Assembly: GCA_951406725.2 (NCBI GenBank)
Contig: OX597837.1
Location: 12,090,001-12,154,000 of the forward strand
Direction: 5' to 3'
Source of the DNA: Octopus vulgaris
Lineage: Eukaryota
Length of the DNA stretch: 64,000 bases
The position numbers and the translations under genes were made by a program. Positions 9,096 through 55,042 of the stretch are shown piece after piece. The number at the start of each line of letters is the position of its first letter. Position 1 is the first letter of the stretch. Below the pieces are notes generated by a model. That model ran no database searches and had not been told where the DNA came from. It saw only the letters and a list, made by a program, of their open reading frames with translations.

Positions 9096-9358
9096 AAAAA
9101 ATACAAACTGGGACAAGAACGCAAAACATTTAGAAGACGATACAAAAAACACGGACATTCGAAGCCTTCAATCTTCAGTCAAGAACCGGATCATCCTCGC
9201 AATTTCGGCTGATTAATCTTGAGATTGCTCCGATCTGGCCAGCCCCAAAGGAAAATCTAAGCCAAGCGCATTAGATTCCTTGGAAGAAAGCCTCGAATAT
9301 ATACAAAACAAGGACGGGAAAACGGACGATGTTACACGACTAAGAATACGAAAATACG

Positions 9359-9360
<2 letters not shown>
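9096..9360 (-). mobile_element. (TA)n-inserted non-coding element, family P1 (permuted HHR)
   Basis: Homologous to 20420-20698, 17926-18054 and 35140-35229; (TA)n on both sides. Confidence 0.85.
9163..9228 (-). ncRNA. Non-circularly permuted hammerhead ribozyme motif
   Basis: Minus strand: gcaa-UC-tcaaga ttaatc agcc-GAAA-ttgc gaggatgatccggt tcttga-CTGAAGA-ttgaa-ggct; all three stems pair perfectly. Confidence 0.7.
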
Positions 9361-17925: not shown

Positions 17926-18054
17926 TAAAAATACAAAATGGGACAAGAACGCAAAACATTCAAATAGACGACACAAAAAACGGACGGGTCATTCGAAGCC
18001 TCTAATCTTCAGTCAAGAACCGGATCATCCTCGCAATTTCGGCTGATTAATCTT
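17926..18054 (-). mobile_element. Family P1 copy, 5'-truncated at the predicted HHR cleavage site
   Basis: Similarity to 9096-9220 stops at …gattaatctt, followed by (AT)n. Confidence 0.85.
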
Positions 18055-18336
18055 ATATATATATATATTTCCCGAGCTATAATGTCATGAGAGCCGGATA
18101 TTCCGGGATTCCATGGCATATATATTCATCTCATCAGGACTGTGGAAGGATTACAAGAAAGCAGGACACACATTGAATATCACCTAAAATGACGAAAGTG
18201 TCACGCATGGATTACGTCACATTTCGTCATAGGTTTCGTCCATGAGGTCTGACCCAGAGCTAAACAGCAACACTGACCGAGTAATATTGATATAAGTTAA
18301 GAGGTTATGTACTGAATGCCTATACATCCCTTCCTC

Positions 18337-19865: not shown

Positions 19866-19932
<67 letters not shown>

Positions 19933-19934
19933 GC

Positions 19935-20132
19935 CATGATAGATCGTTAGCCACTACACACATTTTTTTCTCTCCTTGTTTTTCTTCCTTGTTTTTATCT
20001 GTGTACCTTTCTGTAGAAGAGCGTAGGCTCGAAACATAAAAGACTTTTTCTATTCCTGAGCGTTATACTAATACATCTGTTTGTTTTGTACACCACCTGT
20101 CTTCGTCTTTTGTTATTTTTTTCGTAAACTCT

Positions 20133-20185: not shown

Positions 20186-20192
<7 letters not shown>

Positions 20193-20693
20193 ACGTGACC
20201 AGCTAGCCACTGCCGTGCGGCCTTTTCGCATCCAGCAGTCGTTGTAGCAACACCGTTTTTGTTCGTCTCCCGTGGCCATAAGACACAACTCTACAAGCCA
20301 GCCCCAAACTCAACTCGTCCTGTCGAAAGACCCTTGTCCTACGTCCTGGTTTTGTTTTTATCCTTACCATTATTGTTTTTACGTTTTTGTATTCTTATTC
20401 GTACTTTCCTTATTGTTTTCACGTATTTTTGTATTTTTATTCGTGTACATCGTCCGTTTTCCGTCCTTGTGTTGTATACATTCGAAGCTTTCTTCCTAGG
20501 TATCTAATGCGCTTGGCTTAGATTTCCCTTGGGGGCTGCCCAGGTCGGAGCAATCTCAAGATTAATCAGCCGAAATTGCGAAGATGATCCGGTTCTTGAC
20601 TGATGACTGAGGGCTTCGAATGTCCCGTCCTGTGGTTCTTGTGTCGTCTTCTAGGTGTTTCACGTTCTTGTCCCAGTTTGTATATATTTTTTA

Positions 20694-20698
<5 letters not shown>
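20186..20698 (+). mobile_element. Longest family P1 copy, between two (TA)n tracts
   Basis: 3' ~280 bp homologous to 9096-9360; the 5' extent is assumed from the flanking (TA)n. Confidence 0.75.
20550..20615 (+). ncRNA. Non-circularly permuted hammerhead ribozyme motif
   Basis: gcaa(20550-53)-UC-tcaaga(20556-61); agcc(20568-71)-GAAA-ttgc(20576-79); tcttga(20594-99)-CTGATGA(20600-06)-ctgag-ggct(20612-15). Confidence 0.7.
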
Positions 20699-20731
<33 letters not shown>

Positions 20732-25667: not shown

Positions 25668-25866
25668 AAGGGAAAGTTTACGAAAATAAACAAAAGACGA
25701 AGGCAGGTGGAGCACAAACAAACAAATGTATTAGTATAGCGCTCAGGAATAGAAAAAGTCTTTTACGTTTCGAGCCTACGCTCTTCGACAGAAAGATACA
25801 CAGAAAAAAACAAGGAGAGAAACAAGGAGAGAAAAAGTGCGTGTAGGAGCTAACGATCTATCATGG
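25666..25866 (-). mobile_element. pLTR-like element, family M2; variant HHR at 25760-25795
   Basis: Minus strand: cttt-CTGTCGA-a-gagc(gtag)gctc-GAAAC-GTA-aaag. Confidence 0.8.
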
Positions 25867-54864: not shown

Positions 54865-55042
54865 AACCCCCACACATTTTTTTCACTCTCCCCTTTTTCG
54901 TTCTCTCTCCTGCCTCTCTGTCGAAGAGCGTAGGCGCGAAACCTCAACCACCTTTCCATTCTTCCCGACCGTCAAACTAATACACCTACTTGTTATTCTC
55001 TCACCTATCTTCGTTTTTTGTTGCCTGTAAATTTGAACTAAT
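54865..55042 (+). mobile_element. Decayed M2-type pLTR-like copy
   Basis: CTGTCGA-a-gagcgtaggcgc-GAAAC at 54918; 3' end gtaaatttgaacta. Confidence 0.7.

Follow-up and report, generated by a model that had tools for sequence, protein, structure and literature searches.

Genomic copies of a non-coding octopus repeat begin preferentially at the predicted cut of a rewired hammerhead ribozyme

The locus studied here raises the question of why a short repeat copy in the genome of Octopus vulgaris begins almost exactly where a hammerhead ribozyme is predicted to cut the repeat's RNA. The copy lies in a window of 64,000 nucleotides (contig OX597837.1, positions 12,090,001 to 12,154,000, forward strand), which is the whole stretch of DNA analysed and belongs to a microsatellite-rich genome of 2.8 Gb. 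The window holds four copies of this repeat, termed P1, for which three exact 3' anchors gave 980, 3198 and 704 matches genome-wide and an anchor of a sister subfamily gave 121. P1 is non-coding, without any open reading frame (ORF), and its 3' end is fixed, running into a microsatellite about 130 nt beyond the cut site; its 5' ends differ from copy to copy, and some loci carry tandems with a unit of 753 nt. The copies in the window are as follows (+1 directly follows the predicted cut):

17926..18054, minus strand: short P1 copy whose first base is +3 relative to the predicted cut, as judged from the sequence and from comparison with read-through copies
18055..18068, no strand: target microsatellite, (AT)n, bordering the 5' end of this short copy
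18033-18045, minus strand: GAAA block of this short copy
18006-18012, minus strand: CUGANGA of this short copy
9097..9360, minus strand: read-through copy that retains the complete ribozyme, with the cut predicted at 9223/9222
20187..20700, plus strand: copy from a different P1 subfamily (CUGAUGA), also reading through, with the cut predicted at 20555/20556
35106..35227, minus strand: short sister-subfamily copy with its start near +9

On the minus strand, the copy at 17926-18054 reads (AT)n and then AAGATTAATC; at the site, read-through copies have GCAATC before the cut and TCAAGATTAATC after it (stem I strand, TCAAGA). Its start at +3 agrees with the original prediction, which placed this end within 2 nt of the site and also had two other copies passing it, both of which (9097-9360, minus; 20187-20700, plus) are real read-through copies. 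Because 17926-18054 contains the 3' half of the ribozyme alone, it is unable to form the core itself. The fourth copy, delimited earlier as 35140-35229 and described as a diverged copy starting at the site, turned out to be neither: it matches a young sister subfamily at 100% identity over 103 nt; the site of that subfamily reads GCAAATC before the cut and TCAGAATTAAACAGCC after it, and a start at +1 requires a deletion of 6 nt, a start near +9 being simpler and matched by two further loci of the same subfamily (L214 and L216). A CACGTGAC motif, found at 20192-20199 of the window and in L008, L099 and L101, recurs a few hundred nucleotides upstream of the ribozyme in unrelated families, and is possibly an internal promoter element.

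Where P1 copies begin was mapped in 306 copies picked solely by their 3' end (L031-L210, L241-L270 and L301-L380, with bystanders), of which 300 remained after six duplicates were dropped; left out were L271-L300 and, because their searches favour long matches, L001-L030 and L211-L240. Each copy was aligned to 13 real long copies, the leftmost matching base being taken as its 5' end. A microsatellite followed the 3' end in 286 of the 300 copies, 32 continued into a next unit by a rough motif test, and 10 of the 306 had inverted 5' junctions. An inverted piece was also seen at the 5' end of L064/L065, L117, L126 and L248, some of which switch at or beside the predicted cut.

Starts at +1 to +21 were found in 91 of the 300 copies (0.0215 per nt at risk), compared with 10 at -21 to -1 (0.0033 per nt; ratio 6.5, p 2e-12) and 11 at +22 to +42 (0.0021 per nt; ratio 10, p 8e-21); the rate at -43 to -22 was 0.0016 per nt. 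The histogram that the original prediction proposed thus has a cliff at the predicted site rather than evenly spread truncation points: position +1 alone holds 10 ends (0.0625 per nt at risk) and all of -5 to -1 hold four. The maximum-likelihood change point of a two-rate model falls on +1, with -1 lower by 0.65 log units and -2 by 3.4. The boundary expected directly after AUC was found at +1, and the expected single-base peak was not, the cliff being followed by a 20-nt tail; just 11 of the 300 copies start at +1 or +2, and the bulk of the pile lies at +3 to +21. The start of 35140-35229 near +9 is within this pile, so that copy still fits the wider pattern. Half of the copies (150/300) read through the site, which indicates that cleavage is partial or reversed, and 59 begin past +21. 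The P1 5'-end excess at the cut site is beyond chance, and the claim that reverse transcription used self-cleaved RNA as its template is supported by this histogram, from which we infer cleavage in vivo; assembled contigs gave no usable RNA starts or ends.

The excess is present in all six reference groups (+1 to +21 against -21 to -1: 51/4, 12/1, 12/2, 7/2, 3/0 and 6/1), exact +1 or +2 starts being confined to three of them, and is unchanged when L031-L060 and inverted junctions are removed (81 vs 7, n=259). An independent genome-wide pattern, with (TA)n no more than 14 nt from the site, listed 35 distinct loci by an eye count, 27 starting at +1 or +2 and eight at -3 to -12; nine and two of these, respectively, overlap the 300-copy sample, and 18 and six are new. 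Other families, with too few copies for a meaningful comparison, gave roughly eight ends at +1 to +21 and three or four upstream.

Ends of this kind could also arise, with no need for cleavage, if reverse transcription halted within the folded RNA and the enzyme switched to the (TA)n target at A/T-rich spots. The 5'-end rate does rise with microhomology at all positions, the peaks inside the pile fall where microhomology is available (+3, +6, +8, +10 and +13), and 15 ends (0.0059 per nt) form a lesser cluster at -63 to -44, on the 5' arm of a hairpin, where there is no ribozyme site. Stalling, however, is expected at the 3' edges of helices (+22 to +60), where ends are in fact rarest (0.002-0.003 per nt), and once copying reaches +13 it has passed the partners of the strands that remain, yet 69 ends lie at +1 to +13. 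Positions that start with the same ATC differ as well, with one end at -3 against 14 at +10, and two each at -12 and +32. The excess remains in every microhomology class, the ratio being 7.7 after stratification, and among junctions whose flanks do not end in TA or AT, 33 ends lie at +1 to +21 vs six upstream (p 4e-4). On these grounds, stalling and jumping seems an unlikely source of the pile. Another possibility is that one or a few master copies, truncated at +1 by chance, spread by themselves. The haplotype TTGCTAC, with three short copies and one long, is of the sort that such spreading would leave, and the tree of 192 copies, being built on about 120 nt, has little resolution. Against it, short and long copies have at least six haplotypes in common, in similar numbers (26/30, 9/9, 4/6, 3/6 and 3/5), and are interleaved on that tree (58 changes, shuffled 59.1 +/- 3.1, with as few changes in 77 of 200 shuffles). 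We consider a master-copy origin very improbable. The excess occurs in P1 copies both above and below 97% identity, that is, in young and older ones.

We therefore return to cleavage at the predicted site, for which the ribozyme itself has to be described. Its parts in the read-through copy at 9097-9360 are as follows:

9240..9244, minus strand: displaced stem II 5' strand GGCTG, 22 nt upstream of the site, with its partner CAGCC before GAAA
9232..9238, minus strand: 5' strand of the bridging helix X, partner at 9186-9192, a by-eye pairing that changes between subfamilies
9217..9228, minus strand: site block with the stem III 5' strand, the AUC triplet and the stem I strand TCAAGA
9199..9211, minus strand: GAAA block with the stem II 3' strand, GAAA and the stem III 3' strand
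9193..9198, minus strand: three-nucleotide bulge plus GA, opposite GGA at 9229-9231, where a kink-turn is predicted to join stem III and helix X
9172..9184, minus strand: stem I partner TCTTGA and the CUGANGA core, with no stem II strand after it

The site block comes first, then GAAA and then CUGANGA, an order that cannot be obtained from types I-III by circular permutation. A descriptor of this split order gave 135 strict matches across 1.98 Mb of loci, as against zero when the DNA was reversed or complemented; the matches form 15 clusters, of which some are P1 variants and two are probably chance. The core (CUGANGA, GAAA and an NUH triplet) is invariant across 15 aligned types, with N7 being A, T, G or C and the triplet AUC, GUC, GUU or AUA. 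Since MAFFT aligned the diverged stems poorly, pairs were counted from core landmarks in 14 diverged repeat types of this genome, in all of which GAAA lies at +15 to +17 and CUGANGA at +35 to +47. Paired positions number 67/70 in stem I, 68/70 in stem III and 69/70 in the displaced stem II, against 41-44 with shuffled partners, counts that are partly circular because the descriptor required stems I and III and the displaced strand was the best match in its search interval. Most stem columns show several pair types, i.e. covariation. Fairer controls are the zero matches on reversed DNA and the finding that a five-of-five upstream partner of stem II exists in 12 of the 15 clusters but in one of 15 control intervals. 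The distance from this upstream partner to the site is 22-28 nt (e.g. GGCTG:CAGCC, GAAGG:CCTTC, GAGCA:TGCTT, GGGGC:GCCCC and GCGCC:GGTGT), which means that the chain has its opening between A9 and G10.1. The alternative in which the strand following CUGANGA makes stem II was rejected, as that strand pairs at 31/70 positions, equal to the shuffled mean of 31.0, with the first pair in 3/14 types.

The putative helix X was read by eye (CCGGATC:GATCCGG, CCAGATT:AATCTGG and CCAAGAT:ATTTTGG; 5/7 pairs in the sister subfamily). Between it and stem III, the bulge is GAG, GAA, AAA, CAT or TAT depending on the family, with GA kept; this bulge-plus-GA pattern is present in the P1 subfamilies, L099, L061 and the motif of the Naiad elements treated below, and other families have another loop. 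In the kink-turn consensus, tandem G-A and A-G pairs follow a bulge of three nucleotides; in P1 the bulge and tandem GA are predicted to supply the bend as a kink-turn. Several of the additional split-core types have an AGUA/GAA loop in that place, presumably loop E-like, or a plain bulge. Drawn as nested helices, P1 RNA would form one long hairpin; its apical loop would have to dock with an internal loop, and this docking may take place within one molecule or between two. A dimer formed through the palindrome GATTAATC was dropped, as the palindrome is absent from sister subfamilies. Among the 150 Rfam matches listed of 435 for the window there is no ribozyme, all being microsatellite look-alikes; a canonical-order hammerhead pattern gave eight matches in the window, none in P1, and the opposite strand of P1 has no hammerhead core. 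Minimum-energy folds of both strands (z 0.5 and -0.6) are uninformative because the RNA is pseudoknotted.

Conservation of the core and stems also bears on whether a genuine RNA 5' end at +1 could come from transcription initiation or a protein nuclease. The chemistry of RNA ends is invisible in genomic ends, and a hammerhead of an Anolis Penelope-like element (PLE) cleaved only in the presence of protein (PMC11167929). Nevertheless, the boundary is the exact nucleotide predicted from the hammerhead core alone, and the core and three stems are kept in 14 repeat types whose stem sequences are unrelated, so a non-ribozyme origin of the end is improbable. That P1 copies start at the cut of the rewired hammerhead, likely since self-cleaved RNA templated reverse transcription, is in our view quite probable.

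The closest architecture is that of type-SGC hammerheads, which, according to Eckert et al. 2023 (PMC10085705), were validated in vitro and found in metatranscriptomes only, not in genomes of known organisms; the P1-type ribozyme has thousands of copies in an animal genome. Type SGC resembles P1 in the order site, GAAA, CUGANGA and in being non-circularly permuted, in the linker between stems I and II (typically 3 nt, 3-5 nt in P1) and perhaps in an extra helix joining the other strands of these stems, whose putative P1 counterpart is helix X. However, the stem II strand directly follows CUGANGA in type SGC and lies 22-28 nt upstream of the site in P1, and both strands of the putative P1 extra helix, unlike in type SGC, join stem III via the predicted kink-turn or another bend. 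The same authors assume that the block of CUGANGA and the stem II strand is uninterruptible; the predicted P1 ribozyme breaks this stated rule of hammerhead architecture.

Which enzyme moves a non-coding repeat of this kind could be approached through the Naiads, which Craig et al. 2021 (PMC8557442) report as lacking canonical hammerheads, the octopus Naiad being flagged HHR_half_core and having (TA)n targets. A split core would be missed by standard descriptors, which may be why that paper describes Naiads as being without hammerheads. In the displayed parts of 16 Naiad consensus 3' ends, inspected by eye, four have the full split fold, one probably has it, three have a canonical-order core and eight have no hammerhead core. 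Named by file order, the four are Naiad_Obim and Naiad_Ovul (both octopus), Naiad_Amil (Acropora millepora) and Naiad_Dcar (a bdelloid), and the probable one is Naiad_Esco (a squid). In the displayed sequence of the published octopus Naiad, the fold lies by eye about 125 nt from the 3' end. Its motif has 243 exact matches in this genome, and five of six such loci pass the site, one starting near +7. P1 and Naiads (PMC8557442) are alike in (TA)n targets, heavy 5' truncation, partial tandems and inverted 5' copies. P1 shows the PLE traits of 5' truncation, partial tandems, inverted 5' copies and microsatellite targets. It differs from Naiad in having no ORF, the likeness consisting of fold, spacing and target without a demonstrated sequence match; since these three are alike, P1 is most likely mobilised by a Naiad. 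About 2 Mb of loci contained no coding element contiguous with P1.

Other elements of this genome carry hammerhead-like sequences too. A Neptune-like PLE (L271-L300) is very abundant, with 17,980 first-look candidates; the sense-strand P1 ribozyme is absent among its 3' UTRs listed, which have a CTGAAGA..GAAA stretch in antisense. A second abundant repeat, downstream of Neptune-like ORFs, has a type I-like minimal hammerhead variant (CUGUNGA-A, hairpin GAGC/GCUC, GAAA and a palindromic stem III) at 19927-20114 (plus), 25689-25874 (minus) and 54913-55022 (plus) of the window and in L109 and L132. About ten more non-coding split-core types occur (L122, L130, L101, L234, L248, L264, L107, L355, L018, L099, L312 and L061). 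A reverse transcriptase element of 1175 aa, with RVT_1 and a C-terminal restriction-like endonuclease motif, exists in many near-identical copies (L381:1305-4832, L382-L384 and L253:1890-2260); we take it to be of the RLE type and HERO-like. It has the same split-core hammerhead in its 3' UTR (L381 near 4900), about 110 nt before the 3' end, and partial tandems with a period of 3737 nt read through the ribozyme in 4/4 copies, which were chosen for long ORFs and, in two cases, also for tandem spacing. These tandems suggest that an element outside the PLEs is copied from circular or tandem RNA.

The following scheme would account for the P1 pattern. P1 transcripts would be cut at AUC, and a Penelope-like enzyme, likely of the Naiad clade, would nick a (TA)n target. 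PLE copying starts internally (PMC11167929), and in P1 it could start at the element's own internal (UA)n, about 130 nt downstream of the cut. On cut RNA, copying would run off at +1, and the cDNA end would be joined to the target after losing 0-20 nt, with A/T microhomology preferred, so that starts at +3 to +21 would represent trimmed ends. Uncut or re-ligated, possibly circular, RNA would be read through and give the long and tandem copies, a ligated circle being identical in sequence to uncut tandem RNA, and copies starting at the cut, lacking the upstream half of the ribozyme, are likely dead ends. The genomic ends indicate that P1 RNA likely cleaves itself in living cells before it is copied into the genome; for the Anolis PLE, cleavage was dispensable in vitro and zero RNA reads ended at the site (PMC11167929).

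Non-LTR retrozymes, as described in the available parts of Cervera and de la Pena 2020 (PMC7229834) and Li et al. 2026 (10.64898/2026.07.22.740005), are like P1 non-coding tandem units; they have one hammerhead per unit and are proposed to move via cut monomers and circles, using PLE enzymes. Their units are about 300 nt with type I hammerheads, whereas P1 has 753 nt, a rewired ribozyme and mostly dispersed and truncated copies, and thus is not a retrozyme in the sense of short tandem units with a type I hammerhead. Genomic 5' ends mapped to the cut were not found in these portions of the retrozyme literature. In R2 (HDV-like ribozyme) and Perere-3 (twister variant), as PMC8501958 describes, self-cleavage sets the 5' end of inserted copies, as it probably does in P1, so the principle of ribozyme-defined insertion ends is not new. 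There, full elements begin with the ribozyme, and cleavage produces the working template. The P1 ribozyme is instead located about 130 nt before the 3' end, so that what is inserted from cut RNA would be a short, dead copy. Literature searches, with most subscription papers outside their coverage, returned no such fold in animals and no such PLE footprint; what is new here is this footprint in a PLE-like family and a hammerhead wiring not found in those searches.

On balance, we favour the view that this is a seventh hammerhead wiring in animals, in which the core is open between A9 and G10.1 and a kink-turn or bulge folds it back, and that it is the missing ribozyme of Naiads from coral to octopus, shared with an unrelated RLE-type retrotransposon, its germ-line cutting being recorded in about one third of P1 copies. 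The 5'-end histogram could be applied to any element family, and the genome provides a nucleotide-resolved record that fits cleavage in vivo. If this view is true, the partial tandems of Naiads and of the RLE-type element would both be accounted for by cutting followed by re-ligation into circles.
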